64,000 nt of DNA from Ostreococcus lucimarinus (taxonomy: Eukaryota), in NCBI GenBank assembly GCA_000092065.1, contig CP000585.1; one strand, written 5' to 3'. The translations under genes and the position numbers were made by a program. The notes below the pieces were generated by a model. The model did no database searches. It was not told the DNA's origin and saw only the letters and a list, made by a program, of their open reading frames with translations. This document shows, one piece after another, positions 17,671 to 59,560 of the stretch; within the stretch, counting starts at the first letter, position 1; each line of letters opens with the position of its first letter.

Positions 17671-17711
<41 letters not shown>

Positions 17712-31670: not shown

Positions 31671-31813
31671 GTGCGTCGAGCGCGCGACGCGCGCGACGCG
31701 CGACGCGCGGGGCGACGCGACGCGCGCGACTCGACGATTTCGCATTCGCATTCGCATTCGAAACGACGACTGACGACGACGACGACGACGACGACGCGCG
31801 CGAAAACTCGCAG
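31671..31813 (+). other. DNAJC17: Spliceosomal intron (143 nt, GT..AG, phase 0) splitting the J domain of DNAJC17
   Basis: Donor is AAG|GTGCGT at 31671. Acceptor is ...aaaactcgCAG| ending at 31813. Splicing joins ...ATIKK to AFRKLALKCHPDK, restoring the invariant HPD motif. The intron contains (CATTCG)3 and (GACGAC)8 tracts. Confidence 0.8.
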
Positions 31814-32677
31814 GCGTTCCGAAAACTCGCGCTGAAATGCCACCCCGATAAGCGGCCGGCGTCGGAGCGCGAGCGGGCGGAGAAGGAGTTTGACGCGCTG
31901 CGACGCGCGAGCGACGCGCTGCTCGACGTCGACGCGCGACGCGCGTTGGATGATTTCCTGCGCGCGAAAGCGGCGCGAGCGCGCGCGCACGCGGCGCACG
32001 GAGCGAAGAGAAAACGAGATTTAGAGGATCTGGAGGCGCGGGAGCGGAAGGCGGCGAGCGCGGGGGAGGTGGGGGCGGAGCGCGCGGCGCGAGAGCGGTT
32101 GCGAGGCGAGTTGGAGCGTTTGCGGCGTCGACGCGAGGAAGCGACGCGGGGGGGGAAGGCGCGAGATGGCGATGGCGTGGGGACGGCGGCGACGACGTCG
32201 ACGGTGCCGGAGCACTTGTATCGAGCGCTCAAGGTGGTGTGGCGACGCGACGGCGACGCGGACGACGACGCGTACTCGGCCAAGGAGCTGCGGGAGATTT
32301 TTGAAACCTTTGGTCGCATCGAGGACGTCGTGATTCGCGAGGGGAAGAAGAAGAAAGGCAGCGCGCTCGTCGTGTTTGCAGACGGCGACGCGTGCGCCAC
32401 GGCGTCTGGGGCGACGTGTGGGCGGTCGAGTAATCCGTTGGTCGTCGCGCGCGCCGCGATTCCTCCGAAAGTCGACGCGGGGGAACCGGCGAAGCGACGG
32501 GACGACGCGGCGTCGGGAGGCGTTTCACCGGCGCCGGCGAGCGAAACGACCGCGGCTCGAGCGCCGAGCGTCGCGAATCTAGACTTTGAGAGCGTGGTGC
32601 TGGAGCGATTGAAACGCGCGCAAGAGCGCGCTCGGCTCGTCGCAGAGGCGGAAGCGGAAGGCGACGACGAATCGTGA
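31814..32677 (+). CDS. DNAJC17: DNAJC17-like, exon 2 (rest of the J domain, Arg/Glu-rich coiled coil, C-terminal RRM)
   Basis: It encodes AFRKLALKCHPDKRPASERERAEKEFDALRRASDALLD...LKVVWRRDG...ELREIFETFGRIEDVVIREGKKKKGSALVVFADGDACATA, which is RRM-like. It is in frame with the track ORF at 31946..32677. Confidence 0.8.
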   Translation, partial: AFRKLALKCHPDKRPASERERAEKEFDALRRASDALLDVDARRALDDFLRAKAARARAHAAHGAKRKRDLEDLEARERKAASAGEVGAERAARERLRGELERLRRRREEATRGGKARDGDGVGTAATTSTVPEHLYRALKVVWRRDGDADDDAYSAKELREIFETFGRIEDVVIREGKKKKGSALVVFADGDACATASGATCGRSSNPLVVARAAIPPKVDAGEPAKRRDDAASGGVSPAPASETTAARAPSVANLDFESVVLERLKRAQERARLVAEAEAEGDDES

Positions 32678-32851
32678 TTTTTTATAGCGTGGTAGACACA
32701 TCGTGTCGCGTGGCGCGGCGCACAATCTAGTAATCATTGCAATACCGAACATTTCGTGATCGCATCGCGCTCTGAAAGAGTGCTAGAAGAAGTCAAGAGC
32801 GACTGCGTCCTCGAAGGCGAGGTCGCGTCTCTTTGCTAAGAATACCCGTCC

Positions 32852-33271
32852 TCACTTGGCGTACTTCGCCGTCCACTCTCGCGCCGTTTGCAGCGCTCCG
32901 TGTTCGTCCGTTTTCCAGTGCTCCGCCACGTTCTCTCGCAAAGGGTCATCTGGGTTCGGCGCGCTCATCAACGCCTGCACGCTGAGTAAAATCGTACGAA
33001 TCTGCAGCGCCGGAGACCACTTATCCTTCAACACGTCCAAACAGATGCGCCCAATCTTATCCGTGTTCGGGTGATAAATTTTCGTCCTGAAGAACACCTC
33101 CGGCGGCGCCATGGGATAATCCGCGGGTAAGAACAGCTCCAACTTGAACTTCCCGCCCTCGTACGCCGTTCCCCGCGGTCCCTCCACGACGACGAAAAAG
33201 TGTCGCAGGTTCGTCTCGCTCACCTCCACCGCGATCCCCGGAATCGGTTCCTGCTGCAATCGCTGCGCCTC
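32852..33271 (-). CDS. UBE2N: Ubiquitin-conjugating enzyme E2 N (Ubc13), exon 2
   Basis: It encodes [32 protein letters not shown]...[60 protein letters not shown]...EWTAKYAK. This is near-identical to human UBE2N (…[60 protein letters not shown]…). Confidence 0.9.
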
Positions 33272-33496
33272 CTGCGTCGTCATCGCGCGTCGCGCGCGTC
33301 GTTTCGTCATTCTCGCGTCGTCGCGTCTCGTCGCCTTCCCGTCTCCCGTCTCGCGCGCGCCGTTTTCCCGCGCGTCGCCTTCGCCGCGGTCCGCCGTCGT
33401 CGCGCCCGATTTCACCGCGTCGCGCGTCGTCGTCTCGTTCGTCGTCGTCGTCGTCGTCGCCTTCGCGTCGTCGCCTTCGTCGCGCGTCCGCCGCAC
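33272..33496 (-). other. UBE2N: Spliceosomal intron (225 nt, GT..AG, phase 0) in UBE2N, in frame and stop-free, and therefore masked inside a long ORF
   Basis: Minus-strand donor is AAG|GTGCGG at 33496 and acceptor is acgacgCAG|GAG ending at 33272. Splicing gives [26 protein letters not shown], which aligns with human MAGLPRRIIKETQRLLAEPVPGI. The intron has a (GACGAC)n tract that encodes poly-T if left unspliced. Confidence 0.85.
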
Positions 33497-33535
33497 CTTG
33501 AGGATCCGTCGCGGGAGCGACGACGCGTCCGCCAT
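33497..33535 (-). CDS. UBE2N: UBE2N (Ubc13), exon 1 (13 codons, [13 protein letters not shown])
   Basis: ATG verified (cat at 33533-33535). The 53 in-frame codons the track places upstream ([11 protein letters not shown]...) are not coding. Confidence 0.85.
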
Positions 33536-33669
33536 CCTCGTCGACCGGCGTCGCCGCGTTCGCGCGCGCGCGTCGCTCGCGTCGCGCGCGTCGCGCGCGT
33601 CGCCGCCCTCGCGCGCTCTCGCGCGTCTCGCGCGCGCGCGCTCGTCGTGCGTCGACGCCGCGCGTCGCG

Positions 33670-34683
33670 ATGTTCGGTCGCGTCGTCGCGGCACTCGCGC
33701 GCGCGATGGCGCCGACGCGCGTCGCCGACGCGCGTCGACGCGGGCCGCACGCGCGCGGGGTCGCGCTCTTCGTCGCGCTCGCGCTGCAGTACGCGTCGCA
33801 GCCGTTCCTGCGCGCGCGCTACGCGGCGAACGCGCGCGCGTCGGCGCTCGTGCTGAGCGTCGAGATCGCCAAGGCGACGCTGTGCGCGTGCGCGCTGCTG
33901 CGACGACGCGAGACGCGAGGGGCGCTGCGACGGGCGTCCGCGCGGTCGCTGCTCGCGTCGGGCGCGCCGGCGGCGGTGTACGCGGCGCAGAACGTGCTGC
34001 TGCAGAGGGGCGCGCGCGCGCTGGACGGCGTGACGTTCAACTGCCTGAACCAGACGAAGCTCGCGAGCGCGGCGGCGTTTCTGTGGCTGGGAGGGGCGCG
34101 GCAGAGCCGAGCGCAGTGCTTGGCGCTGGTGGGGACGCTCGCGGCGGCGGTGAATCTGTTCGGGGGGGAGACGGCGGCGAGCGGCGGCGGCGGCGCGGCG
34201 AGCGCGGCGGCGCGCGCGGCGGGCGCGACGAGCGTGTTGGTGGCGTCTGCGCTGTCGGGATTGTCGGGAGCGATGTGTCAGTTCGCGCTGCAGGGGAGCG
34301 AGAAGCTTCCGGCGATGATGACGCTGGAGATGGCGATCACGGGGGTGCCGATGGTGTTGCTCGCGGAGCGCGTCGCCGCCGGCGACGAGTTTCGCCTGAG
34401 CGCGGTGTACGAGTCGTGGACGGCTTGGGCGCTCGTTCCCGTGCTGTCGAGCGCGATCGGTGGGATACTGGTGGGGGAGATCACGAAGCGATTAGGTTCG
34501 ATCGCGAAGGGGTTCGCCGTGACGTGCGGTTTGGTGCTGACGGGGGTGTTTCAGAGCGTCTTCGCGGGCGCGGCGCCGCCTCGCGCGCACGTCGTGAGTT
34601 TGATCGTCATCGTCATCAGCACTTGGGTGCACACCGCGTTTCCGCCAGTCGAGAAGCGTAAGAAGAAGCGCAAGACGGGTTGA
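33670..34683 (+). CDS. Nucleotide-sugar transporter (SLC35A/UDP-galactose-CMP-sialic acid transporter family)
   Basis: A multi-pass membrane protein. The motif region is [40 protein letters not shown], and it has a C-terminal basic tail KRKKKRKTG. My hand-indexing of the start is within 1 nt of the track value. Confidence 0.75.
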
Positions 34684-34777
34684 GCGAGGGTGTGTCGTAG
34701 CGATAGCATTCGGTTGGAATAGTATTTGGTAGTATTTCTAAGCGCCGAGGGCGCGTGCCCGTTGAGGGCGCTATGCG

Positions 34778-36328
34778 CTATCTTCTATAATCTTTCCACG
34801 ACTCGCGAGCGGTCATCGCGCGCATGAGGCTTAGAAATAAAATACTCAGCACGCTTCCCGTCATAGCGGCCACGTTGAACGTCATCGAAAAGTCTGGCGT
34901 GGGAAGAAGCAGGAGGAGACTGTTCATGTACAGCGTCTCGGGAGCCACTGAGGATGCTCGAAGTTTATCGAGAAACGCGCTCGCCTGCTGCGTACGAGGC
35001 ACACGTGTGTCGGCGTGGATGACACGGAACGCATCGAATCGAGCCGGAGGTAAGTCGAACCCACGGTTCGCGTCCGGAGGAAACTCTTGCGCTCGAAGGA
35101 AACCTTTGTCGAAATCAAGGCGCAAGCGAAGCATCGAGGCGTTCGCTGGAAGCACCATTTGTAACTCAAGCAATGAAGAACGCACGCGATCTTCTGCGGG
35201 CACGAAGTGCATTTCATCCAACACTTCGCGCGACACCGCGACTCCGTCCAGCTCGATAGAAAGCGTGTGCATGTACAGCTTCACGAACCAAGGAAGCGGC
35301 TGGAACAAACGAGCACGTATGGGCGGCGACGAGTTCGCGCTCGATTCCAGCGCCGGCCGCTCGATATCGATCACAATACCACCGAACTCATTCCCAGTGC
35401 CCGTCAAGAACCGTTCGACGTACAGCGTGGGCGTGCGATGGTTGACTCCGAGAGCGTCGGCGTCGAACGCCGCCGACGACGACAAATTGAAAGTCGCGAT
35501 ATCATCTCCATCGCGCGCGTGAACGTACGAGCCATCGGCGGCGACGCAGACGTCACTCGCCACTCGCTGGATCGTTCCGATAATTTCAGCGTACGACTCG
35601 CTAGCATCTGGCAACACCATCATCAAAGTTTGCTCGGATCGCGTGTAACCGTCGCCATCCTTGGACAACCTCACGCCGAACGTCAAATGTCTCGCGCTAA
35701 ACACTTCGTGCGCAGTTTTCAGCGCCTTTGCCAATCCCGCTCTATCGCGACAAGGCAACTGCTTCAACCACGGCGCTAAGTTCTCCACGCACACCGCCTC
35801 TTGCGGTAAACTCGCGTGCTTCACCGTCGCGGCGTCGCTCGCCCGTCGCGCCGACGACGCCTCCCCATCCCAAGCGTTAAATCCCAACACCGGTGACGTC
35901 ACCGCCGTAGACGTCCCCAGCGCGCTCAGAGACGCGCAGAACGTCCCGCCGAGCGCCGTCGTCGCGTCTCGCCACCCTCGCTCGGCGTCCTCGTCCGCGC
36001 GCCACGTCCCGAGCGCCTCCGCGCCGATCGGTTTCGCCACCACCGGCGGCGCCCCCCATCGCCGCGCGTTCCAACGCCCGCGTCCGAACCACAGTTCGAG
36101 CGTTTCTGCGCGTGATTTCGCGAGCACCGCGCGCAGGGGCTTGGCCATGACGGCGGAGTGTCGTTCGAGCTCATGCTCGGTGGTGGTGAAGGTGAACACC
36201 AAGGCGACGGCGTCGTCGCGTAAACGCTCGATGAGGACCTCCTCGACGAAAGATGCGCGCGCCGCGACGATGGGGATCATCGCGGCTAACGCCAGGAAGA
36301 CGGCGCATGGGAACGCGCGCGCGCGCAT
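34778..36328 (-). CDS. PIGT: GPI transamidase component PIG-T (Gpi16)
   Basis: ATG verified (cat at 36326-36328). It has a signal peptide. Several blocks align with human PIG-T: [30 protein letters not shown] against ...[38 protein letters not shown] against [31 protein letters not shown] against PWYLRLYVHTL; and [12 protein letters not shown] against [12 protein letters not shown]. A C-terminal transmembrane helix is present. Confidence 0.9.
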   Translation of the reverse strand: [516 protein letters not shown]

Positions 36329-36369
36329 CGCGTTCTGCGGCGTATAGTGTTTGATGATTCGTCAACTGG

Positions 36370-38291
36370 CTAGAGTGGAAATTCGCGTCGAAGAGCGCCG
36401 ATGTCGTGCTTGTCGACGTGTTCTAAGAGATCTAATCGTCCGGTGCAACCAAGACTGATGCGGACGTAGCCCCAGGTCGGACTTTCGGGGTTGGGATTCA
36501 TCGATAACGCGCGAATGTAATAAGGCATCGACTCGGCGTACCGGCCTTGGTTGGCATAACTGATGCCCATGTTTGACCACGCGCGAACGTAGTTGGGTTT
36601 GATGGTCAGCGCGCGGCGATATGCCCCTACTGCGTCGGCACTCTCGGCGCCGTTCGCCTGCGTGGCGCCGATTTTGTTCCACAATGAATGGTCGTCGGGG
36701 CGCAAATTGGCGGCTCGTTGAAAGGCGTTGACTGCGTCTTCGTAATTCCTCGTCAAATGCGCCATGACACCGAGCACAGTTTGCACGTCAGCGTCGTTCG
36801 GTGCTTGTCGAGCGGCTTCTCTGAACATTGCCATGACGTTTTCGGGCGTGTGTGGCGCTTGTCCGGCGGCGATGTGTTTGAAGCGCTCTTGACTTCCGAG
36901 CCACTCACACGCGTGGCCGAGGGCTTCATCCTGGTCCAGCTCGTTCGCGTGGCTCACAGCGAGGGCGAGTAGAACATTTGGATTTTGCGGGTTCGCCTCG
37001 TACGCTTTTGACATCGCCGCGATGGCTTGCTGGTCATCGTCATTTTCCGCTTGGATGCGTCCCAGATGGTACCACGCTTCGCTGTTGCTCTGATCTTGAC
37101 GCACCCACGCCTCAGCGGCGAGGGCAGCTTCGGCGAGTACGCCCGTCTTTGCCAATTCCATCGTTTTCTCTTGCAAACCACTTTGACCGAGGTATGGGTT
37201 CGGGTCGGTGAATTTGTAGTTGCTCCGTTCTGAAAGCGGATTTTGTTGCATTTCGTCCCAAACGTTTTGCATCCATTCTGGGTTGTTGCGCTGCATATCT
37301 TCAAACTCGCTCGCCCACTCGCGCGGTACGTTCTTGAACTCTTCTGCCCAATCGTCGACGTTTGACTGCCTTTGCGATTCCATCTCGCGCTGCGAGAATT
37401 GCTGCGCCCACGCTTGGCTCGTCGGATTTTGACGCTGCATCTGCGCTGTAAACTGGTCCGCCCATTGAGGTTGCGGTTGCTGTGTTTGCTCGATGAACTC
37501 GGCCGCCCATCGCTCACCTTGGTCCACATGCCGCGCCTGAGGTGCCGCGTTTACCTCCTGCAAACCGTCTTCTCTCACGACGACTTGCCCGCTACCAAGT
37601 TTGGACATGAGTTGCGCGAATTTAGAATTCGCAAACTTTGGATCGGCGTTCAACGTCGCCGCAAGCTCACTACTTTGTTTCGCAGTTTGTGCCGCAACGT
37701 CAGTAAGCGGTGCTTGCACATCACTGGCGTGTTGTTGTGAAAACTCGTCCGCCCATCTGTTTTGCGCCGCGCCAAACTCCTCGCCCCAGCGCGTGCCTTG
37801 ATTTGATCTGTACTCTTGCGCCCACGCATCGGCGCGCGGTGGCGCGTGCATCGTGTGTGGCGGCGGCGGGTGGTTGTGAAACTCGTTTGCCCACTGCGCG
37901 TGCCTTGAAGTCTCAACATTCGCGAATTCTTCCGCCCAGGAACTCGGCGACGCCTGCGCGTGAAGTGGTTGCTGAAATCCGCGCGCCCAGCGGTCGCCGC
38001 GCTGCATCTCGCGAAGCATCGCCGCATTATGCGCCATCTGCGCTCGGGCGCTCATCTCAGCGTCATCCATGCGCATGCGCTCGAAGCCGTCTTCCATCTC
38101 CCCCTGCGACTGCAAATGTCTCGCCATCACAGCGCTCCTATTTCGAGCGAACGACTTCTCCAGCGCCGACGCCCCGCGCGCGTCCAACCTCGCATCCGGC
38201 ACCATCTGCACCGGTGCCGCCGCATATCGACCACTCGCACGCATCGTTCCTTCACGCACGTCTTCCACACCGTCCAACAGCCCCTCTCTCG
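36370..38291 (-). CDS. PEX5: Peroxisomal targeting signal 1 receptor PEX5 (plant-like), exon 2: ten WxxxF/Y motifs plus the C-terminal TPR domain
   Basis: The TPR domain is almost collinear with Arabidopsis PEX5: LGRIQAENDDDQQAIAAMSKAYEANP, HSLWNKIGATQANGAESADAVGAYRRALTIKPNYVRAWSNMGISYANQGRYAESMPYYIRALSMNP...ALRREFPL. The WxxxF/Y motifs are WAEEF, WANEF, WAQEY, WGEEF, WADEF, WAAEF, WADQF, WAQQF, WAEEF and WASEF. NRSAVMARHL matches the plant RSSIMARHF. Confidence 0.85.
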
Positions 38292-38419
38292 CTAAATGTA
38301 ACCCATTCGCCGCGTTCGCCGCGCCTCGCGCGAGTTGGTCTGCGCGCCGAGTCCAACCGTCAGTCACGTCGTCTCGCGCGTCGTCTCGCGCGTCGCGTCG
38401 AGCGTCCGCGCGCACGAAC
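38292..38419 (-). other. PEX5: Proposed spliceosomal intron (128 nt, GT..AG, phase 1) in PEX5 that joins an out-of-frame first exon to the main ORF
   Basis: Minus-strand donor is CGAG|GTTCGT at 38419 and acceptor is TTACATTTAG|CG ending at 38292. The 1+2 phase joins ...QRASER to A-REGLLDGVEDV... in the main frame. That an intron exists is near-certain because of the frame change, but the exact acceptor is a model. Confidence 0.55.
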
Positions 38420-38588
38420 CTCGTTCGCTCGCGCGCTGTATCTGTTGTTCGCGCGCGCGCGTGCCTCGATCGCCGAGTAAGACGTCGGCGACGCGCGCGA
38501 TTGGATTCGCGGCGCTCGACGGACCGGCGCCGTCGCTGGGTTCGCACGACGCGCCGCCGGTCGCGAGATCGCGCATGAACCTCGACAT
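38420..38588 (-). CDS. PEX5: PEX5, exon 1 (MSRFMRDLATGGASCEPSDGAGPSSAANPIARVADVLLGDRGTRAREQQIQRASER)
   Basis: ATG verified (cat at 38586-38588). MRDLATGGASC...NPI matches the conserved PEX5 N-terminus (Arabidopsis MAMRDLVNGGAAC...NPLGAL). It lies in a different frame from the 776-aa track ORF, whose first ~150 Arg-rich residues are therefore not coding. Confidence 0.8.
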
Positions 38589-38704
38589 CGCGCCGCGGGT
38601 TCGAGCGTGCGGTCGGCGCGGTCGCGCGGGTCGAGTTGTAACGTAGGCGTCTGCGTTGGGTTGCGTCACGTCGCGTTTGGTATTGCAATTGACGGCGCAA
38701 GGAA

Positions 38705-40282
38705 TCACGTGAGCACGAGGGCGATCTCGCTAGGTTCTAAATCTTCCAATATCCGCCAGTTGTAGAGGTAATAGTGCAAATTCCCGTCGCCGATGCCGAA
38801 ATTGAGCGCGCTCAGGAAGGATTCGTTTTCCATCAAATCGAGCGCGTTGAAGACGTCGAATGCGTTGTTTCGCGCCAAAATGAGGGCGTCTTCCATGAGC
38901 TTCACGAGCGGCATGGACGTCGCGACGTTGTAATACGAGTACGCCGCCTTCAGAGTTTTGTGCTTGGTTTTGCTGTGAATGATTTGCGACGGTAAGTTGT
39001 AAAAGCTGACGAAGTCGGTGATCTTGTTCGTCTTCTCGTCCTCGACGACGTATGAAAACACGACGTCCTCGCGCGGCAACAACCAGTGCCGAACTTCGGC
39101 CTCATTCATTATGGGCGCCACGGCGAATCTAGTCAAATATTTGCTCAACAACGCCGTCACGCGTGGAACGTCGGCCTCGGTCATGTGACGCAACCCTTCC
39201 GATTTTGGCTTCGCGGCAAGCTTGAACATCTGCACCGCGCGTGACATCGAGGCGTCGCGACCCAGGCGCGTGAATCCGATGTCGACGAGCTTTTTAATAT
39301 CCAAACTCCGATGCCAATAACGCGCTTTCGATATCGGCTTCGGCAACAGCACTCCCGCGGTGTACGTCGCTTGCCACACATCTTTCGCGTTGACCCGTCG
39401 CGTAATCTCCTTGATGAGCGTCGGCGCGATGCGCTTCGAGCGCAACTTTTTATGAATGCACAAGAAATTGATCTCCGCCAAGTCGATTTCTTTCCCCTTC
39501 ACCCTGAGTTTCGCCGGCACGCCCGTGATGAACGCCACGAGCGTCTGCGTCACCTTCAACCGCACTCCAACGTGCCAATCACCGTGATACTCCGGCGGTC
39601 GCAGCGCCCACTTTAAAAACTCTTGCGAGTATTGAAATCGAAACATCGCGTCGTCGTCCTCCACGTAGTTGTTCGTCAACAGCTCGTACACCTCCTCCTG
39701 CGTCCTCGAGTCCGTCATATCGCACGAGCACCACTCGTACCCCGGCGGCAGCGCGCCTCCGCTCTCGCTCGTCTCACTCGCGAGTTTCGGCGGGTCGATC
39801 GGTCCTTCCCGCAGCTCCGCGCCGCGCGACGTGTCCTCGCCGAATTGTCGCACGGGTTGCGTCTCCCAGAATTCGTGCGACGGCATTCGCGACGTCCGCT
39901 TCCCTTCGCGTTCGGCGAGGTGATGCTTCACGAGCGCGTCGACCACGCTCGACACCGTCGGCGCGTCGCCGTCGCGCGCGCGATCGACATCGCCTTCGAC
40001 ATCTCGTCCGCGCACCGCGTCGTTTCGCGCGTCGCGCGCGTCCGACGCGTCGGCGCCGACGACGCGCGCGTTCGCGTCGGCGCTCGCGGCGCGCGGCGCC
40101 GCGTCGGCGTCGGCGTCGGCGCGCATGTCGCGTCCAGCGCGTCGGAGTGCGGGCCGACGCCGTTCATCGGCAGAGCGCGACGCGTCGGCGAGCGCGCGAG
40201 ACACCGAGTCGGCGCGCGAGCGCGCGCGAGCGATCGACGCGTCGACGCTCAGACGCATAGACGCCCGGACGCGTCGAGACAT
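38705..40282 (-). CDS. NMT: Glycylpeptide N-tetradecanoyltransferase (N-myristoyltransferase)
   Basis: ATG verified at 40282. Conserved blocks are FWETQPV, EINFLCIHKKLRSKRIAPTLIKEITRRVN and YYLYNW. The N-terminal ~140 aa are Arg/Ala/Asp-rich, and the true start may be a downstream Met. Confidence 0.85.
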   Translation of the reverse strand: MSRRVRASMRLSVDASIARARSRADSVSRALADASRSADERRRPALRRAGRDMRADADADAAPRAASADANARVVGADASDARDARNDAVRGRDVEGDVDRARDGDAPTVSSVVDALVKHHLAEREGKRTSRMPSHEFWETQPVRQFGEDTSRGAELREGPIDPPKLASETSESGGALPPGYEWCSCDMTDSRTQEEVYELLTNNYVEDDDAMFRFQYSQEFLKWALRPPEYHGDWHVGVRLKVTQTLVAFITGVPAKLRVKGKEIDLAEINFLCIHKKLRSKRIAPTLIKEITRRVNAKDVWQATYTAGVLLPKPISKARYWHRSLDIKKLVDIGFTRLGRDASMSRAVQMFKLAAKPKSEGLRHMTEADVPRVTALLSKYLTRFAVAPIMNEAEVRHWLLPREDVVFSYVVEDEKTNKITDFVSFYNLPSQIIHSKTKHKTLKAAYSYYNVATSMPLVKLMEDALILARNNAFDVFNALDLMENESFLSALNFGIGDGNLHYYLYNWRILEDLEPSEIALVLT

Positions 40283-40404: not shown

Positions 40405-41547
40405 ATGAAGTGGTACCTAGGGTATACCACCGCGCACCACGTCACGGGGTTCTTAGCGTGGACGAGCGCGATCGTCGCCGTCGCGCTCGTCGCCATGCAC
40501 GTGAAGCACTACACCATGCCGCGGGTGCAGCGACACATAAATCGAGTGATTCTCGTCGTGCCCGTGTTCTCGTTGCTGAGCTGGATCTCGCTCGTGATCG
40601 AAAATAATAAGGCGGAGTTCTACATCGAGGTCGTGCGAGATTGCTACGAGAGCTGGGTGGTGTACAACTTTTTGAATCTTTGTCTGGCGTACGTCGGCGG
40701 ACCGGGCGCCATCGTGAACGCCATGGCTGGGAAGGAGATCAAAGTCGGTTCTTGGTTGCGCGGGACGTGCATCTTTGATCGTGATTTAGTGGTAGATGGG
40801 AACTACATTCGGCGGTGCAAACAAGGATGCTTGCAGTTCGTGTTTATCAAGCCGATTTTGTCGGTTATAGAAATCGTGCTGCAAGCCAAAGGGAAGCTCG
40901 GCGACGGACAGATCAACTTTTTGAAGGCGTACGTGTACATTCTCTTCGTGTATAACATTTCATACACACTCGCTTTGTACGCGCTGTGGATGTTTTACTT
41001 GGGCGCACACGACCCACTGGCGAAGTACAATCCGTTACTCAAGTTTATCATCGTCAAGAGCGTGATCTTTTTGAGCTTTTGGCAAAGCTTCTTCACCGCC
41101 ATGGCGGTGCGCACGGGAAGTTTGGATAGCCCCGAAGAAGGTCGCGCGGTGCAGGACGTACTTATTTGCTGCGAGATGTTCGTCGTATCGTTGATGATGT
41201 GGTTCGCGTTCCCATACACCGATTTCGTCGACCCAACGGGCGCCAAGCGTGGCTTCGTCTCCAACGTCGTCAACTTTGTCTCTGTGCGCGACGTCTTTGA
41301 CGATACGGTGCATCAGTTTGGGGCGACATATCAAGACTACACGCTTCACGGTGACGGAGAGACACCGGATAGGACGGTGAAGATGCGTACATTCGTTCCT
41401 ATGGGTCGTTCGAGCGCACCCGAGCACGACACCGCGAGCCTGTCGGCGAACGCGTCGGTGTGGGACGACCTGGAAGCGGCGGCAAACGCGCCCCCGCTTC
41501 GAAGCGACGCGCCTGAACACGAGTTGGCGACGATCGGCGAAGAATAA
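40405..41547 (+). CDS. TMEM184 / OST-alpha family (DUF300) multi-pass membrane protein
   Basis: ATG verified. The seven-TM core reads ...YESWVVYNFLNLCLAYVGGPGAIVNAM...FLKAYVYILFVYNISYTLALYALWMFY...LLKFIIVKSVIFLSFWQSFF, typical of DUF300. Confidence 0.8.
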   Translation: MKWYLGYTTAHHVTGFLAWTSAIVAVALVAMHVKHYTMPRVQRHINRVILVVPVFSLLSWISLVIENNKAEFYIEVVRDCYESWVVYNFLNLCLAYVGGPGAIVNAMAGKEIKVGSWLRGTCIFDRDLVVDGNYIRRCKQGCLQFVFIKPILSVIEIVLQAKGKLGDGQINFLKAYVYILFVYNISYTLALYALWMFYLGAHDPLAKYNPLLKFIIVKSVIFLSFWQSFFTAMAVRTGSLDSPEEGRAVQDVLICCEMFVVSLMMWFAFPYTDFVDPTGAKRGFVSNVVNFVSVRDVFDDTVHQFGATYQDYTLHGDGETPDRTVKMRTFVPMGRSSAPEHDTASLSANASVWDDLEAAANAPPLRSDAPEHELATIGEE

Positions 41548-41618
41548 AATTAGGAATGAGTTAGCGGATGAGTTGTTAGTACCAGATATAATTACATGGA
41601 CGGAAATACATGCCAGCG

Positions 41619-42545
41619 TCAATCCAGATAGAACAAGGTGACGAGCTTTCGCATAGTTTTCGCGTTGCGGCACGTTTCGAGCAAAAGTCTGGAATCGTGA
41701 AAAGCGAAGACGATGATTTGTTTCACCTTACTCACGATCGTGTCGTTGCATATCCTCGACGCCTCTACGAGAGGCATGCCGTCGTTCTCCGGGGCTTCGA
41801 CGATTTGCGCCACGCCCTCCAACAGCTCCCTCGATTCTCGCGGTTGCTTGGCCAGACTTTGCGGTAAAACCACTGTGAGCAATTCGGGCTGCTCGGCGCG
41901 AAGCGCCCCTCTGATCACCGCCGCGTTCGTCCCGGTGGCACCACTCGTGTATATGTGATTCCCCGTCAAACAAAGCGCGTACGCCAAAATTTCAATCAAC
42001 TGCTGGTGCATGAAACCCATATTCCTCGTCCCGAAGAAGCCGATTTCCTTCGGGCAGTCCTCTTGAATCGCGATGAGCTCTTGCAAGTAATCCACATCCA
42101 GCGTCATCCCGCTCGGTTTATCCTCAACCGCGGCCACACCTTTCACGACAGCCTCACCTTGCGTCGACAGCCCGTCGCCCGAGTAATCCGCGCCGAACAA
42201 ACCCTCCAAATCTTCTCGCGGTCCGCCGCGCGTCGTCTCGCGACCCCGGTCGCCGACGTCGCCGGCGTCTCGCGACACCGACGTCTCATCCCGCGCGCCC
42301 GCGCGCGCCCGCGCGTCTCTCTCGCGCGCTCCGCGCGTCATCGTCGTCCGCGACGCGCGCGTCATCGCGTCTCCGCGCGTCGCGCGTCGCGCGTCGTCGC
42401 CGCGATGATCCCATCGCACCGGTGCCGACACGCGTCGCCGTTCGAGCGTCGCGACCGGTCCCGCGCGCGCGCCGGCGCCGCGCGCGCGCGCTCGAAACGC
42501 TCGCGCGTCCCCCACCGCGCGCGTCGCGCCGCGCATCGTCGACAT
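41619..42545 (-). CDS. DprA/Smf-like Rossmann-fold protein with a long Arg/Ala-rich (transit-peptide-like) N-terminus
   Basis: ATG verified at 42545. The core IGFFGTRNMGFMHQQLIEILAYALCLTGNHIYTSGATGTNAAVIRGAL...LTVVLPQSLAKQPRESRELLEGVAQIVEAP follows the DprA pattern (GSR..s..G......la..La..g..vvSG.A.GID.aAH.gAL...T.aVL..Gld..YP..n..L). The assignment is from memory of the family profile. Confidence 0.5.
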   Translation of the reverse strand: MSTMRGATRAVGDARAFRARARGAGARAGPVATLERRRVSAPVRWDHRGDDARRATRGDAMTRASRTTMTRGARERDARARAGARDETSVSRDAGDVGDRGRETTRGGPREDLEGLFGADYSGDGLSTQGEAVVKGVAAVEDKPSGMTLDVDYLQELIAIQEDCPKEIGFFGTRNMGFMHQQLIEILAYALCLTGNHIYTSGATGTNAAVIRGALRAEQPELLTVVLPQSLAKQPRESRELLEGVAQIVEAPENDGMPLVEASRICNDTIVSKVKQIIVFAFHDSRLLLETCRNAKTMRKLVTLFYLD

Positions 42546-42636
42546 CGCGCGCGCGTCGCGATCTCAAGTTTCGACGCCACCATCGCGCGCGCACGACGCC
42601 CGTCCCGCCGCACTGCGCGACGCGCGGTCGGCGGAG
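42546..42636. promoter_or_regulatory. 91-bp divergent promoter region between the DprA-like gene (-) and USO1 (+)
   Basis: The two verified ATGs are at 42545 (-) and 42637 (+). Confidence 0.4.
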
Positions 42637-45519
42637 ATGCACCGCCTCGGCGCCGTGGCGTCGTCGTTCAAGCACGGCGCGTCGAGCGTGGCGAAAAACA
42701 TCGTCTTCGGCGCGCCCGAGGACGATTCGGGCGCGGGCGCCGAGCCGTTGCTGGACGAACTCACCGAGGGCGTCCTCGGCGCCGATCGCATCGCCGCCGC
42801 GGAAGCGCTGCGACGGTTGATCGAAAAGGATGAACGCGCGCGGTCGTTCGTCGCCGAGCGAGGGCTGGTGAAGATGTTCGAGACGCTGCGGGATACGAAC
42901 GATGACGACGGTTTGGTGCGCGCGACGCTGGAGACTATGCGAGCGGCGGCGAGCGGAGAAGCGAGCGAAGGACGCGAACGGGCGCGAGAGGTGATCACGG
43001 GAGACGTGAATAACGTGAAACAGTTGGTGAGTGAGCTTAGGGGGGTGGATTTTTATTCAAAGCTGCACGCGGCGCAGACGCTGAGCGAGGCGAGCGAGAC
43101 GCGAGGCGAGGCGATGCGAGCGGGAATGTTGGCGGATCCCACCGCGGTGCCGACGCTGATGGATGCGATGAAGGAAAATGAAGTGATTCGTAATGAAATA
43201 CTATTGCTTCTTGTGTCGCTGACGAGAGGAAACGAGGAGTTGCAAAAGATCGTTGCGTTTGAGGGCGCGTTTGAGCGCGCGTTCGCCGTGATGCGAGAGG
43301 AGGGTGGCGTCGACGGCGGCGTGGTCGTGCAAGACTGTTTGGAGTTGTGCAATAACTTACTCAGGGATAATCCTAGCAACCAGACCTTGTTTCGCGAGAG
43401 CGGGTTTGTGCGCAGCGTTCCGGGCATGGCGGCGGTGGAGCGTGAGATTGGTAATGCCGGCATGCAAGGAATTTCGGCGCAAAAAGCAGCGAATACGTTG
43501 TGCGCGCTCGAGACGGTGCATCTACTGGTTAGCCCTGATGAAGAAAGTGGGAAACGTAAGCACTTGAACAGAGATGACGAGCTAGATGCGATGATGAAGC
43601 AGCAACGCTTGCAGGGTTGTCGAGCGAACCAAAGCGAATTGGCCAAGCACGGAACGGTGGAAATTCTTGTGCGAGCGGCATTGGGAGATTCAGCGGTGAA
43701 CGCCGTCAGTGTGCGCGTCGCAGCCTTACGCGCATTGGCGGCGCTCGTGCGCGACCATGAAGGTAACCAGACCGCGTTGTTTAGCGCCACGGCTGATCGT
43801 GCGGGCACGGTGACTGAACCAGCGCTGTTGTCGTGCGGCCGAGCGGCGCTACATAGCGAATCGCCAGCTGAGCGCAGTGCCGCAATATTAGTTTTAGGCG
43901 CGGCGATGCTCGGAAATCCCGATGGTCAGCTACTGCTCGTATCCACGCTCGCACCGACTGGTCTAGGAGCTGATGACAGGAGTGAGGAGTCGTCGCTTGG
44001 TGGGTTACTTGCCCGAGCTCTTATGCAGAAGGGCGGATCGAGCGTGGCGTTCGACGAAGCCAGCACAGCGGCGGCGAGTGTTCTTCGCGACATGCTGCAC
44101 AAAAACGATCAAAGTAAACTCAAAGCACTACGGGTAAACTTGGAACCACTGAGCTCACGCTCGAACGCGTCTGAACTGTTGCTTCCTCGTTGCGTGCGCC
44201 AACTCGCGGTGACGCACGCTCGGGAAGAGGATGAAGAAAAGGTGGAAAAGCTGCAGTCGGTTCTCTTGCGGCTTTTGATCGTGTGGCTATACGAGTGCAA
44301 GGCGGCGGTTGAAGCGTTTTTGTCGTCCCCGGGGCATCTTCCCGCCATAGCCGATCTGGCACGAACTGGCGGAAGCACAGAATCGCCCCATGTCGCCGCG
44401 CTCGCATGCGTCGTGTTGGGATGCTGCTTGCTCGAAAACTCTGGGAGCGTGCTCGACGTCGTCTCTGCCCGAGTGGGATTGCAGAATTTCTTCATGAAGT
44501 GGGAGACGATGACGAAGTCATCGCTGTACGCCGACGCGTCGAGAGCACCCACGTTGCCAAAACCTTTGACGCGAGCGAATGCGGCGAAGTTCGCGACGCA
44601 GAGTGAGGGAGCGGAGGATGTCTCACCCGGTGGAGGATTGTACGATCACGACATTACAGTGTTCATCAACGAGTTAGAAGAGCGCGTGAAGTCGGCAATA
44701 ATGTCACTGTATGCGAAGCCTTCGGGCGCTGGAGATGAGTGTGCGGTGTCGAGCGTGGCTAAACGAGAGGACGAAGACGACGTCTCATACGCGCGGCGCT
44801 TACAAGAGGCACTTCAAGCGAGTGAGTCGGAATTAGCGGAGGTGCGCTCGCGAAACGCCGTACTGGCAGAACAGATTTTGGGCGTTGCACCGACATCGGC
44901 AAACGCGAGCGATGATCCATCCGCAGTGGCGAAGAACGGCGCGCGTCACGCGTCCGCCGAAGCCCTTCACGCCGCCGTCGAGGCGGCGAAGCGAGCGAGC
45001 GCCCAAGAGATCGCATCCCTAACTTCCGAGCTTGAGGAAGTCAAAAAAGTGGCCGAAGAACGTCAGGAAGCCCTCACGTCATTGAGCACGGCGTATAACG
45101 GTTTAGAAGCGGAGGTGTATCGTCTCGAAACTGAAGCCAATGGCTTGCGCGAAAAGCTCCACGCGTCTTCGGAATTTGGCGGCGGCGCCGCGCCCGAGAC
45201 CTCATCTTTAGACATCGCGCGAGAAGCCGGCCGCGAAGAAGGTCGCCGTCTCGCTGAGGCTGAAGCAGAGTTACGCATCCGTGACGCCGTCGACGCCGCG
45301 CTCGTGGACGCCGATTCTCGCCTCCGCGCCGCCGTCGAAGCCGCCGTCGCCGACGCTCGCGCCGCCGACGAAGCAGAGCTCAACGATCTTCTCGCCTGTC
45401 TCGGGCAAGAGGAAGCGTCCAAGGAGCACTTGCTCGCTAAACTCATCGCCGCGGGCGAGAGCGAGGCCGCGCTATTGGACGAGCTCGCGTCCATCGTCAT
45501 CGAGGACGTCGACGCGTAG
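42637..45519 (+). CDS. USO1: General vesicular transport factor p115 / USO1 (plant golgin candidate 6-like): armadillo N-terminal domain, coiled-coil tail, acidic C-terminus
   Basis: ATG verified. Strong match to the p115 armadillo region: VIRNEILLLLVSLTRGNEELQKIVAFEGAFERAFAVMREEGGVDGGVVVQDCLELCNNLLRDNPSNQTLFRE against human IRNDGVLLLQALTRSNGAIQKIVAFENAFERLLDIISEEGNSDGGIVVEDCLILLQNLLKNNNSNQNFFKE. The C-terminus is a coiled coil plus IEDVDA. Confidence 0.85.
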   Translation: MHRLGAVASSFKHGASSVAKNIVFGAPEDDSGAGAEPLLDELTEGVLGADRIAAAEALRRLIEKDERARSFVAERGLVKMFETLRDTNDDDGLVRATLETMRAAASGEASEGRERAREVITGDVNNVKQLVSELRGVDFYSKLHAAQTLSEASETRGEAMRAGMLADPTAVPTLMDAMKENEVIRNEILLLLVSLTRGNEELQKIVAFEGAFERAFAVMREEGGVDGGVVVQDCLELCNNLLRDNPSNQTLFRESGFVRSVPGMAAVEREIGNAGMQGISAQKAANTLCALETVHLLVSPDEESGKRKHLNRDDELDAMMKQQRLQGCRANQSELAKHGTVEILVRAALGDSAVNAVSVRVAALRALAALVRDHEGNQTALFSATADRAGTVTEPALLSCGRAALHSESPAERSAAILVLGAAMLGNPDGQLLLVSTLAPTGLGADDRSEESSLGGLLARALMQKGGSSVAFDEASTAAASVLRDMLHKNDQSKLKALRVNLEPLSSRSNASELLLPRCVRQLAVTHAREEDEEKVEKLQSVLLRLLIVWLYECKAAVEAFLSSPGHLPAIADLARTGGSTESPHVAALACVVLGCCLLENSGSVLDVVSARVGLQNFFMKWETMTKSSLYADASRAPTLPKPLTRANAAKFATQSEGAEDVSPGGGLYDHDITVFINELEERVKSAIMSLYAKPSGAGDECAVSSVAKREDEDDVSYARRLQEALQASESELAEVRSRNAVLAEQILGVAPTSANASDDPSAVAKNGARHASAEALHAAVEAAKRASAQEIASLTSELEEVKKVAEERQEALTSLSTAYNGLEAEVYRLETEANGLREKLHASSEFGGGAAPETSSLDIAREAGREEGRRLAEAEAELRIRDAVDAALVDADSRLRAAVEAAVADARAADEAELNDLLACLGQEEASKEHLLAKLIAAGESEAALLDELASIVIEDVDA

Positions 45520-45627
45520 TCGCCGACGTCAAACCAACCGTCGCCGAGTTGTAATCCACGCGCACTTCCCCCCGCACACCGCACCGCGCGCGCGAGCTCG
45601 CGCCCACACACCGCGCGCGCGCATTCG

Positions 45628-46818
45628 ATGGGCGCCGCCGCGGCCAAGCTTCGCGATCTCCGCGCCGGCCCGCTCGACGCGTCCGAGTGCGCCGAACTCA
45701 AACCAGTCTGGGGCCCATTCGTGGACACCTTCGTCGCCACCTTACACGCCCAAGGCGCCGCCGTCGCGCCCGTCGACGTCGACGAACGAACGCCGCGATC
45801 GCCCGCGACGCCGTCGGCGGCGCACGCGTCGACGTCGACGTCGTATCGACGCCCGAGCGTCGAACGATTGGTCGCCATCGGCGACGTGCACGGAGACCTG
45901 GCGAAGACGCGCGAAGCGTTTCGCGCGGCGAAACTGACGAACGCGCGCGACGAATGGGTCGGAGGGACGACGACGTGCGTGCAAGTGGGCGATCAGCTCG
46001 ATCGAGGGAAGGACGAGGTGGCGATATTGCATTTTTTGGAGCGGTTGCGAGGCGAAGCGCGAGCGGCGGGGGGCGAACTCGTGGTGATGAATGGAAATCA
46101 CGAGACGCTGAACGTGAGCGGGAGGTATAGGTATTCGTTAGCGGAGGGTAACGCTGATTTCACGCGATGGCGGGCGCGACAGGACATTGGGAAGGTTTTG
46201 CGAGCGAATTGCGGGTTGGCGGCGGGCGTGTGCGAGTCGCGCGCTGGCGAAGCGGCGAAGACGGATACTCTACCGAGTTTCGTGAAAGAGGGCGAGGGTG
46301 ATCGCTGGCGCGCGCTCGCTCCGGGAGCACCGTTGGCGCTGAGGTTTTTGGCGCACCAGCCGGTGGTGGTGGCGATCGGGAGCACTTTGTTCGTGCACGG
46401 CGGTGTGTTACCAGAGCACGTCAAGTACGGCTTGGATACGCTCAACGAAGAGATCTCGCAGTGGATCAAGCGGGGTAAAATCAAAAGTGCGCCGCCGTTA
46501 AGCGTCCAAGGGCGAGATTCGGTGGTTTGGGCGCGCGATTACTCGCACGTGCAAGAACATAAGTGCGATTGCGACTTACTAGAGGAGACGCTTCGGATGA
46601 TTCCCGGCGTCGAGCGCGTCGTCGTCGGGCACACCATCCAGCATCCGCACGGAATTACCTCCGCGTGCGACGGTAAAGTCATCCGTATCGACGTGGGTAT
46701 GTCGAAAGGGTGCGTCGACGCCAAACCTGAGGCGTTAGAGATTTTAAAGGACGGCGAGTCCATCGCGAAAATGAAGCTTGGTGACGACGGCGAAACCGTC
46801 GAGACGACGACGTTGTGA
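45628..46818 (+). CDS. Shewanella-like protein phosphatase (SLP; PPP-family metallophosphoesterase)
   Basis: ATG verified. Metallophosphatase motifs GDVHGD, GDQLDRG and GNHE sit in an SLP-like context (LVAIGDVHGDLAKTREAF...VQVGDQLDRGKDEVAILHFLERL...VVMNGNHETLNV). The N-terminus is MGAAAAK. Confidence 0.8.
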   Translation: MGAAAAKLRDLRAGPLDASECAELKPVWGPFVDTFVATLHAQGAAVAPVDVDERTPRSPATPSAAHASTSTSYRRPSVERLVAIGDVHGDLAKTREAFRAAKLTNARDEWVGGTTTCVQVGDQLDRGKDEVAILHFLERLRGEARAAGGELVVMNGNHETLNVSGRYRYSLAEGNADFTRWRARQDIGKVLRANCGLAAGVCESRAGEAAKTDTLPSFVKEGEGDRWRALAPGAPLALRFLAHQPVVVAIGSTLFVHGGVLPEHVKYGLDTLNEEISQWIKRGKIKSAPPLSVQGRDSVVWARDYSHVQEHKCDCDLLEETLRMIPGVERVVVGHTIQHPHGITSACDGKVIRIDVGMSKGCVDAKPEALEILKDGESIAKMKLGDDGETVETTTL

Positions 46819-46959
46819 GCGCATCGCCGCACGCACCGTTGACGCAGTAGTATTTGTAAAAGAATATTCTCTCATCTGATTCATATTCACAAGCTTCGCC
46901 GATGCGAATTTCTAATTTTACTGGGACAACGAGAATGCTATGAAAAGAAAGAAGTCGCC

Positions 46960-47337
46960 TTACGCGTTCATGCAAAGGGTGGCGCACCCAGACTCGGGAA
47001 ACCCGATCGGGTTGTTCGTAGTGCTCGTACTCGTCGGCACGCACGTGTTGACGAACGAGCTGCACCCAGACATCGCCGCCTTCACCCACGGCAAGAGCGC
47101 CGGCAAAGTCGTCGGCGCCGTCTTCGAGGCGTCGTTCCCGACGTAACGGAACATACCCAAGTATTTCGGCGGCAAGTGACGGTACGGCGCGTGTCGCATA
47201 CCGGTCGTGATGAAAATCAACGCCGCGTAAATCCCCGAGAAGAACGTCCAGAGACAAAGGATGTACACCGCGAGCTTGGCGATGTTTTCCTTGCTCATCT
47301 CGTACCCCGGTTCCACCGGCGCCTTTTCGACCACAAC
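46960..47337 (-). CDS. Small single-pass membrane protein (conservatively 46960..47298 from ATG MSKENIAKLAVYILCLWTFFSGIYAALIFITTGMRHAPYRHLPPKY...); possibly exon 2 of a two-exon gene
   Basis: The ORF has one clear TM helix. The track start at 47334 is a GTG, and the first ATG is at 47298. A 7-codon candidate first exon at 47602-47622 (ATGGCGGCGAAGAAAGAGAAG|GTGCGC) could splice to GTT at 47337 via acceptor ACGTAG at 47338-47343. This is a speculative model. Confidence 0.35.
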   Translation of the reverse strand, partial: VVVEKAPVEPGYEMSKENIAKLAVYILCLWTFFSGIYAALIFITTGMRHAPYRHLPPKYLGMFRYVGNDASKTAPTTLPALLPWVKAAMSGCSSFVNTCVPTSTSTTNNPIGFPESGCATLCMNA

Positions 47338-47752
47338 CTACGTTCCGTCGCGTCGCGTCCATCGTCAGTCGCGCGTTCCGATCGTCGATCGATTTTTCAT
47401 TCACCGCGCGCGCGTCGTCTCGTCCCCGCGCGTCGTTCGCGCGCGCGTCCGACGCCGTCCGCGTCGCGCCCGCGAGAGGTTTTCGCCGTCGCGTCGATCG
47501 CGTCGCGCGCGCGCCGCGCGACGTCGATCGCGCCCGCGGCGCGCGCGCGATCGATGTCGAGCGACGCGTTCGCGCCGTCGCGCGCGTCGCGCGTCGCGCA
47601 CCTTCTCTTTCTTCGCCGCCATCGTCGCGCGTCGTGTGGCGTCGACCGCGGACCTTTCGCGACGGCGGGGTCGACCGACCGCGGTCCGCGGGGCGATGGC
47701 GCGGTTTTAGGGCGGGCCGTACTGTTTGCGCATACGATTGGAATGTGATGCT

Positions 47753-48724
47753 TTAAAAGAGCGTCTTGGACAGCGTCGCGACGGCGGCGCGGAGGACTTT
47801 GGCGTCGCCGCACGCGATGACCTCGCCCTGGAATTCGCCGGACTCTAGAGACGCGCGATCGGCGGTGAAACGCAAGGCGTTGCCCTTCCAGTCGGTCATG
47901 TAACCGCCCGCGCCCTTGACGATGGGGACGAGCGCCATGTAGTCGTACGGCTTGAGGTCGGCTTCGACGACGAGGTCGGCGAATCCCATGGCGAGTAAAC
48001 CGTAGGCGTAGCAGTCGCAACCGTACATTGGAATCTTAACCTTACGCGCGAGGGTTTCGTAACGCGCGGCGTTCATGCCTTCGAACATTAACGGCGTGGT
48101 GCTGTACATGTACGCGTCGCCGACGCTCTCGCACGGCTTGACGGATATCGGCTCGCCGTTCATCGTGCTCACGCGTCCACTGACCCCTATCCATCGCTCC
48201 TTGAGCACGGGTTGATCTAAAATCCCAAGCACGGGCTCGCCGTCGTGCAAAAGCGCGATTAACGTCCCCCAAAGTGGTTTACCCGTGATGAAACTCTTCG
48301 TCCCGTCGATTGGGTCGAAGACCCACGTCCACTCGCTCGACCCGCCCGCGCCGAGTTCGATCCCGTGTTCCTCCCCGAAGATCGCGTGCGTCGGGTACTC
48401 TCGCGTCACCATCGCTCGCATCACCGCCTCCGCCTGCTGATCCGCGATCGTCACCGGCGACGAATCCTTTTTATCCTCCACCTCGACGCCGCGCGCGCGA
48501 AAGTACTTCGTCGTCGTCCCGCCCGCGGCGTCCGCGAGCGCCTCCGCGAATCGCACGTACGCCTCCGGCACGACGACGCGCGGCACATCGCTCGCATCGC
48601 CCATCGCCGCGCGCGCGGTCGCGCGCGCGCGCGTCGCGCGTCGCCTCGAATTCGCGTCGCCTCGAATCCGCGTCGACGCCGACGCGCTCGCCGCGCTCGC
48701 CGCGCGCGCGTCCGCGGCGCGCAT
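47753..48724 (-). CDS. Histidinol-phosphate phosphatase of the inositol-monophosphatase family (plant IMPL2 / HisN-type)
   Basis: The track start at 48835 is a GTG, and the first in-frame ATG is at 48724. IMPase motifs are FGEEHG, WVFDPIDGTKSFITGKPLWGTLIALL and YGCDCYAYGLLAMGFADLVVEADLKPYD, with a HisN-type C-terminal WKG. The pre-sequence is Ala/Arg/Ser-rich. Confidence 0.8.
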   Translation of the reverse strand: MRAADARAASAASASASTRIRGDANSRRRATRARATARAAMGDASDVPRVVVPEAYVRFAEALADAAGGTTTKYFRARGVEVEDKKDSSPVTIADQQAEAVMRAMVTREYPTHAIFGEEHGIELGAGGSSEWTWVFDPIDGTKSFITGKPLWGTLIALLHDGEPVLGILDQPVLKERWIGVSGRVSTMNGEPISVKPCESVGDAYMYSTTPLMFEGMNAARYETLARKVKIPMYGCDCYAYGLLAMGFADLVVEADLKPYDYMALVPIVKGAGGYMTDWKGNALRFTADRASLESGEFQGEVIACGDAKVLRAAVATLSKTLF

Positions 48725-48884
48725 CGCGCGCGGGACGCGCGACGGAACGCGACGCGCGACGCGAGCGCGCGACGCGAGCGCGCGACGCGAGCGCGCGACG
48801 ACGTGTGCGGTCGACCGAAGCGGCTCGGTCGACACATTTGGTCGTCACAGAGCGACGCGCCTCCGCGTCACCGCGCGCGCCGCG

Positions 48885-49002
48885 ATGGCGGACACGAACC
48901 GAATCATGAAAGAGCTGCGCGAGATCGCGAGCGACGTCGCGTCGCAGGTCAAGGTGACGCAGCACGGGGACAGTTTGGTGCACATGAAGGGCACCATCGC
49001 GG
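48885..49002 (+). CDS. UBE2K: Ubiquitin-conjugating enzyme E2 K (UBC core + C-terminal UBA), exon 1
   Basis: ATG verified at 48885. It encodes MADTNRIMKELREIASDVASQVKVTQHGDSLVHMKGTIAG, matching human UBE2K (MANIAVQRIKREFKEV...IKVDLVDENFTELRGEIAGP). Confidence 0.9.
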
Positions 49003-49070
49003 GTGCGTGCGCGCGATCGCGACGCGGCGAAACGCGTCGCGAGAGACTGACGGGCGACGGCCGCGCGCAG
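49003..49070 (+). other. UBE2K: Spliceosomal intron (68 nt, GT..AG, phase 1) in UBE2K
   Basis: Donor is G|GTGCGT at 49003 and acceptor is gcgCAG| ending at 49070. G plus GA reconstitutes a Gly codon, giving ...TIAG-PSETVYEGGTF..., which aligns with human ...EIAGPPDTPYEGGRY.... The length is not a multiple of 3, which explains why the two exons fall in different track ORFs (48885..49157 and 48365..49531). Confidence 0.9.

Positions 49071-59529: not shown

Positions 59530-59560
<31 letters not shown>

Follow-up and report, generated by a model that had tools for sequence, protein, structure and literature searches.

The window analysed here, a 64,000-nucleotide stretch of contig CP000585.1 of Ostreococcus lucimarinus, is a compact, GC-rich segment of a picoeukaryote genome, in which about 30 genes lie on both strands with very short spacers between them. 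The order of the protein index (P002411-P002655), set against the gene counts of each chromosome, suggests that the 847,696-bp chromosome that carries the window is chromosome 5. Our subject is the short introns that interrupt some of these genes close to their 5' ends. An initial annotation, made from the letters of the sequence, had proposed five of them, in DNAJC17, UBE2N, PEX5, UBE2K and the gene of a small transmembrane (TM) protein. We rebuilt the five gene models from the window sequence, reading donors, acceptors and frames directly, and obtained the following features, where lengths are in nucleotides (nt), a slash marks the boundary between exon and intron, and GACTGACG and GAATGACG are branch-site motifs:

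31671..31813, + strand: intron of DNAJC17, 143 nt, phase 0; donor AAG/GTGCGTC, branch site GACTGACG at 31768-31775, acceptor CGCAG; exon 1 31590-31670 (81 nt), exon 2 31814-32677
33272..33496, - strand: intron of UBE2N, 225 nt, in frame; donor AAG/GTGCGGC, branch site GAATGACG at 33312-33305, acceptor CGCAG; exon 1 33535-33497 (39 nt), exon 2 33271-32852
38340..38419, - strand: intron of PEX5, 80 nt; donor GAG/GTTCGTG, branch site GACTGACG at 38365-38358, acceptor CGCAG; exon 1 38588-38420 (169 nt), exon 2 38339-36370
47338..47601, - strand: intron of the small TM protein gene, 264 nt, in frame; donor AAG/GTGCGCG, branch site GACTGACG at 47370-47363, acceptor CGTAG; exon 1 47622-47602 (21 nt), exon 2 47337-46960
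49003..49070, + strand: intron of UBE2K, 68 nt; donor CGG/GTGCGTG, branch site GACTGACG at 49045-49052, acceptor CGCAG; exon 1 48885-49002 (118 nt), exon 2 49071-49531

All five spliced coding sequences (CDSs) are in frame and have one terminal stop each. The five introns are real, and the coordinates, lengths and opening hexamers that had been proposed for them (GTGCGT in DNAJC17, GTGCGG in UBE2N, GTGCGT in UBE2K, GTTCGT in PEX5 and GTGCGC in TM) are exact; their position close to the 5' end is borne out by first exons of 21 to 169 nt. The runs of GACGAC reported in two of them are also in place, (GACGAC)4 at 31772-31795 in the DNAJC17 intron and (GACGAC)3 at 33441-33458 in the UBE2N intron, both in sense orientation, together with three copies of CATTCG at 31743-31760 in the former.

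These introns had been called hidden. The spliced proteins of UBE2N (152 amino acids, aa), UBE2K (192 aa), PEX5 (712 aa) and TM (132 aa) have, from first to last residue, exactly the sequences of XP_001418007.1, XP_001417769.1, XP_001418009.1 and XP_001418012.1, respectively, so that four of the introns are already in the reference annotation. For two of these four, assembled reads give the joined form: the Logan contigs L007 to L009 are 99-100% identical to the window and lack exactly positions 49003-49070, the UBE2K intron, and contig L010 joins position 47600 directly to position 47339, exactly the 264-nt TM intron being absent. We read these four contigs as spliced transcripts, on the assumption that they are of RNA origin.

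The case of DNAJC17 is different. The RefSeq model, XP_001417764.1, is a partial protein of 185 aa that does not have the J domain, and the two-exon model given above encodes a complete protein of 314 aa, with a J domain and an RRM. The junction restores a contiguous N-terminal J domain, MADVDENAYAALGL...IKK/AFRKLALKCHPDK, and the alignment of the spliced protein with the J domains of green-algal and animal homologues begins at residue 1. The DNAJC17 intron of the initial annotation thus improves on the RefSeq model.

Both strands of the window, or 128 kb of strand-specific sequence, were scanned for the branch-site motif. It occurs in its exact form GACTGACG six times, and all six occurrences are on the sense strand, inside 5'-proximal introns: four of the five introns listed above, UBE2N having the one-mismatch form GAATGACG instead, and two others. 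One of these lies in the gene that starts at position 57761, here called g57761, and was already annotated, since the spliced protein of 422 aa is identical to XP_001417772.1, the fifth exact RefSeq model. The other, in a TPR/RMD1-3-like gene, is predicted from its signals and its T-poor composition:

57859..58035, + strand: intron of g57761, the sixth with the signature, 177 nt; donor GAG/GTGCGTC, branch site GACTGACG at 57999-58006, acceptor CGCAG; exon 1 57761-57858, exon 2 58036-59206
26681..26789, + strand: predicted intron of the TPR/RMD1-3-like gene, the seventh with the signature, 109 nt, phase 1; donor CCG/GTGCGCG, branch site GACTGACG at 26755-26762, between GAC repeats, acceptor GACAG; predicted exon 1 26635-26680 (or starting from the ATG at 26578), predicted exon 2 26790-28384

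The evidence for splicing varies accordingly among the seven: contigs for UBE2K and TM, RefSeq models for UBE2N, PEX5 and g57761, homology for DNAJC17, and splice signals for TPR. For the last gene, an unspliced open reading frame (ORF) of 574 aa from the ATG at 26660 is also open, and the spliced protein has no match in the protein collection.

The seven introns, located at 3-20% of the length of the CDS, have a common set of signals. The donor starts with GTGCG in six of them, PEX5 having GTTCG, six contain GACTGACG, and five end in CGCAG, the other acceptors being CGTAG (TM) and GACAG (TPR). The branch A is separated from the 3' splice site by 20, 20, 27, 29, 31, 35 and 40 nt, and in all seven introns the acceptor is the first AG downstream of the branch A. 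The branch site is the most informative element of this signature; the initial annotation had missed it, along with the acceptor CGCAG. The donor motif GTKCG carries little information by itself: it has 566 matches on the two strands of the window. In the case of PEX5, an alternative donor with the more usual start, GTGCGCG at position 38415, was rejected because it breaks the reading frame.

A signature of this kind has been published. For introns of O. lucimarinus outside chromosome 2 that are confirmed by expressed sequence tags (ESTs), Irimia & Roy 2008 (PLoS Genet 4:e1000148, PMC2483917) give an atypical donor consensus GTGCGTG of 4.8 bits, the branch motif ACTGAC in 87% of the introns and GACTGACG in 66.5%, a preferred 3' end CGCAG, and a distance from branch site to AG of about 20-35 nt. 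Organism, donor, branch site, CGCAG and spacing are the same as in the window, where we find no difference in kind; the departures are the mismatch in the UBE2N branch site and the PEX5 donor. The initial annotation was thus right to suggest a lineage-specific extended consensus at the 5' splice site, and the signature as a whole, including the motifs at start and branch site, the location near the 5' end and the high GC content, had been in print for years: the window offers a rediscovery, and no new family of introns.

The seven introns are, in all probability, ordinary U2-type spliceosomal introns, of the canonical class that O. lucimarinus has outside its outlier chromosome. Their recognition would depend on the strict signals of an intron-poor lineage: a 5' splice site (A)AG/GTGCGTG, and a branch site GACTGACG that precedes the first AG by 20-40 nt, this AG usually lying within CGCAG. 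Intron-poor genomes tend to combine strict splice signals with introns that are biased towards the 5' end (Mourier & Jeffares 2003; Irimia et al. 2007). The location of the window introns could then be explained by the general survival of introns near gene 5' ends in such genomes, and their interiors consist of simple sequence, fast-evolving and non-homologous, in units of (GAC)n, (CGCGAC)n and (CG)n.

Comparison with other classes of introns agrees with this assignment. Introns of the outlier chromosome (BOC1, or chromosome 2) have about 40-75 nt, less than 43% GC and no discernible branch site, whereas those of the window have 68-264 nt, a GC content of 0.61-0.77 and a strong branch site. 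Canonical introns of Micromonas (Verhelst et al. 2013, GBE 5:2393, PMC3879977) are located near the 5' end and have the signals AG/GTGCGT and NCTGAC. In Micromonas the distance from branch site to acceptor is reported as 43-52 nt, compared with 20-40 nt in the window. Condon et al. 2026 (PLoS Biol) have since compared the Mamiellales for the GC content, splice logos and branch points of their introns. Farther away, Saccharomyces cerevisiae also has few introns, a strong consensus for donor and branch site (GTATGT, TACTAAC) and a 5' bias; the letters of the consensus are different (GTGCGT and ACTGAC here), and the window introns are GC-rich, T-poor and without a polypyrimidine tract.

Several observations weigh against this reading. 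With seven introns from a single 64-kb window, the sample is small, and the UBE2N branch site is degenerate. The raw motif counts in the window do not exceed those of block-wise dinucleotide shuffles: there are 6 occurrences of GACTGACG for 4.2 in the shuffles, 16 of GTGCGTG for 15.4, and 7 of the composite pattern of donor, branch site and acceptor for 5.4. Since the counts are at the level of the shuffles, the argument has to be carried by the position of the motifs and by the independent gene models. The contigs read as transcripts, L007 to L010, bear on the UBE2K and TM introns, and an intron-less allele would give the same pattern; however, all six metagenome haplotypes that cover PEX5, TM and UBE2K (L001 to L006) keep their introns. 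The shuffles also reveal a depletion: GTGCG is under-represented in the window (275 observed, 319 +/- 17 in shuffles), and so is ACTGAC (16 observed, six of them in real introns, and 23 +/- 4.7 in shuffles), as would be expected if cryptic splice signals are selected against where the genuine ones are strict.

Syntenic loci of other Ostreococcus lineages were reached through homologues of DNAJC17 (L012, L013 and L015) and through the neighbouring inositol-phosphatase gene (L017 to L019). Wherever the region is covered, DNAJC17, UBE2N, UBE2K, PEX5, TM and g57761 have an intron at the same codon, so that position is conserved within the genus:

DNAJC17 intron, same position: L012, L013 and L015
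UBE2N intron, same codon: L012, L013 and L015
PEX5 intron, same position: L017 and L019
TM, orthologous intron: L017
UBE2K intron, same position: L017, L018 and L019
g57761 intron, conserved: L017, L018 and L019

The orthologous introns have GTGCG-type donors and GACTGAC branch sites, but their length, phase and interior differ completely, to the point that the interiors cannot be aligned. Over 22 introns across lineages, 17 start with GTGCG and 16 contain GACTGACG. Outside the genus, the J domain is uninterrupted in distant Mamiellales-like homologues of DNAJC17 (P0102, P0105, P0106, P0112 and P0118, mostly on long contigs), and the intron is absent from Micromonas-like homologues; it seems to be confined to Ostreococcus, and was either gained there or lost elsewhere. 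At the other end of the scale, haplotypes L001 to L006, compared with the window at 35.6-56.8 kb, hardly differ in the PEX5, TM and UBE2K introns. They have in total one single-nucleotide polymorphism in about 850 aligned nt, and a test of constraint based on population variation therefore has no power. The same genes are found on hundreds of marine metagenome contigs, and contigs of different assemblies, including one from a TARA sample, are nearly identical to strain CCE9901 in the introns compared: the diversity of the population appears to be very low. Locus L018 has, at 11047-12045, an extra gene of the PhzC/PhzF family between the inositol-phosphatase and TM genes, which is absent from the window, L017 and L019.

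Two other readings of these segments have to be weighed. The initial annotation had put forward the possibility of a related family of introns, and a model for it is the introner elements of Micromonas (IE-A to IE-D), which are also short, GC-rich, sense-strand spliceosomal introns; IE-C, about 67 nt long, contains GACTGACG (PMC3879977), and the UBE2K intron has 68 nt. Recently propagated copies of one such family would share donors, branch sites and a composition rich in CG and GAC, as the introns of the window do. We removed donors and branch sites and aligned the interiors of the introns of the window locally, in pairs, against 200 dinucleotide shuffles per pair. Similarity is at the level of the shuffles, with a mean z of 0.68: the best pairs, at z of 2.4-3.1, share only 20-26 nt of (CGCGCGAC)n, a CG-rich low-complexity sequence. 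Aligned together with MAFFT, the seven introns give no coherent result either, with a mean column identity of 41% and with donors and branch sites not even in register. Introner elements are repeated, conserved within each class, found at novel, lineage-specific positions and biased towards the centre of genes, and repeat introns are described as restricted to Micromonas among the Mamiellophyceae. In contrast, each intron of the window has a unique sequence and is 5'-proximal, and the positions of six of them are common to three to four Ostreococcus lineages in which length and interior are wholly different. Propagation from one family is thus highly improbable. The introns of the window appear, from these alignments, to be old, position-conserved, fast-evolving singletons, the opposite of introner elements; as their filler is simple sequence ((GAC)n, (CGCGAC)n, (CG)n), the GACGAC runs need no common origin.

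The second reading is that the in-frame segments of UBE2N (225 nt) and TM (264 nt) are not introns at all, but translated low-complexity insertions or N-terminal extensions. The UBE2N segment is indeed free of in-frame stops, and gene callers do make from it a 227-aa protein "E2 N", of 152 + 75 aa, the kind of false extension against which the initial annotation had warned; these read-through proteins come from prokaryote-style gene calls on metagenome contigs. An insertion at this point would, however, break the helix that is conserved at the N-terminus of the UBC fold (RRILK/EAQRL). The TM segment contains three in-frame stops and is absent from L010; the spliced forms of both genes are the RefSeq models; and orthologues have, at the same codon, segments of unrelated sequence and of other length and phase, yet with GT...AG boundaries and branch sites. 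Translation of these two segments is hardly conceivable, and the reading as ordinary introns is kept for both.

Gene calls on metagenomes fail on the other introns as well: PEX5 is broken into ORFs of 70 aa and 665 aa, and UBE2K is cut to 148 aa. Strict signals, GTGCGTG ... GACTGACG ... CGCAG, let the short 5' exons of Ostreococcus be recovered from sequence alone, and they explain the truncated or intron-translated proteins that prokaryote-style calling produces on marine metagenomes, such as the 227-aa "UBE2N". The gains for annotation in the window are the repair of the partial DNAJC17 model and the suggested, unannotated TPR intron. A fragment of an Ostreococcus homologue of g57761 (P0236) is filed in the NCBI database as a hypothetical protein of a "bacterium", MDA9599284.1.

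We now turn to the composition of the introns. They had been described as being as GC-rich as the exons. The GC content of the five first introns is 0.69-0.77, and the pooled value for the seven is 0.71; it is 0.58 over all the CDSs of the window and 63% in intergenic DNA. Around the starts of genes it is about 0.70, whether one takes the last 100 nt before the start codon or the first 100 nt of the CDS. The description is thus correct for the 5' ends of genes, and the average CDS is poorer in GC than the introns: their GC-richness is that of the 5' ends of genes in this genome, with about 70% GC.

What distinguishes the introns is the asymmetry between strands. Pooled, their 1,066 nt have 7.5% T and 21.5% A, or an AT skew of +0.48, against +0.11 in CDSs and about +0.06 in 5' flanks, and the T content of each intron is within the lowest 0.01-10% of windows of the same length. 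CpG steps number 28 per 100 nt. The density of GACGAC is 25 per kb, against 1.7 per kb in CDSs, and GTCGTC has no occurrence in the sense orientation of the seven introns. Observed-to-expected ratios of dinucleotides in the interiors are 1.83 for GA, 1.73 for AC and 2.3 for CG, but 0.31 for AG and 0.67 for GT. Between branch site and acceptor there is hardly any T, and hence no polypyrimidine tract; in the DNAJC17 and TPR introns, and in the UBE2N intron of L012, GACGAC runs adjoin the branch site in the form ...GACGAC-T-GACGAC.... The GACGAC runs are one expression of a general filler that is T-poor, saturated in CpG and made of GAC and CG units. Such runs are also found in coding sequence: (GACGAC)4 at 59532 is a coding Thr run of the second giant gene, which starts at 59465. 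Some 5' leaders and bidirectional spacers also share the T-poor CGCGAC/GACG composition, at 18540-18808 and at 33536-33635, the latter with 1% T when read in the sense of UBE2N. In head-to-head pairs of genes, the A-rich orientation falls to just one gene.

One may conjecture that this filler is shaped by selection: a spliceosome with strict requirements, GTGCG and ACTGAC-AG, would tolerate in introns and 5' leaders only those orientations of the repeats that contain neither GT nor AG, and the (GACGAC)n runs that abut the branch site would be a by-product of the avoidance of cryptic splice signals. The skew, the rank of every intron for T, the one-sided count of GACGAC and GTCGTC, the deficit of AG and GT relative to GA and AC, the almost T-free segment that leads to the 3' splice site and the depletion of GTGCG and ACTGAC across the window speak in favour of this reading. 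However, slippage of a few seed repeats would give the same skews, some intergenic tracts, such as 33536-33635, are equally skewed, and the sample is limited to the 1,066 nt of pooled introns. Moreover, the splice signals are unchanged in the orthologous introns of L013 and L017, although T reaches 21-28% there. Depletion of T is thus not conserved, and we rejected it as a requirement of splicing. Selection on the filler is possible but rather unlikely. The strong T depletion and the GAC/CG filler are not mentioned in the accessible part of Irimia & Roy 2008; apart from this strand-asymmetric composition, the window adds nothing to the biology described there and in Verhelst 2013. If the asymmetry is genome-wide, it could bear on how spliceosomes with strict signals shape the sequence of introns.

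Other genes of the window with long low-complexity N-termini had been suspected of containing more introns. For two of them the suspicion found no support: the 575-aa product of the Raf-like kinase, which carries an ACT domain, is read without splicing from the ATG at 18809 and is the complete ORF of an MMETSP transcript, and the 473-aa protein of NMT is XP_001418010.1. The apparent low-complexity N-termini of these two genes arise because T-poor 5' leaders stay open as ORFs. A relaxed scan of signals had given a 395-nt candidate in the kinase, at 18557-18951, which was rejected on two grounds: it would remove the HLTRLPRQYSLDVN region, which is conserved, and the unspliced 575-aa ORF is that of the complete transcript. 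In the methyltransferase and the giant genes, motif scans, which were the sole check, gave no convincing candidate. Published figures put ACTGAC or WCTRAY in 87-93% of the introns located outside chromosome 2, so that few introns should have escaped the scan of the window.

Two alternatives were discarded for g57761. An in-frame donor at 57820 is incompatible with the RefSeq protein, which is the product of donor 57859, and the CVPPKE segment is conserved in orthologues. An intron that would join the gene to the giant ORF at 58954-63918 is excluded by the stop of g57761 at 59206 and by the ATG of the giant gene at 59465. The coding sequence of g57761 contains a tandem repeat of the peptide RRSVDGG, with 3-4 units of 21 nt (58540-58630).

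Finally, the ORF at 5802-17987 on the - strand, of 4,061 codons, lies within a block of 50-55% GC (4000-18000), well under the rest of the window. The relaxed scan finds in it identical pairs of motifs 1,278 nt apart, at 10205 and 11483, which suggests long internal repeats.

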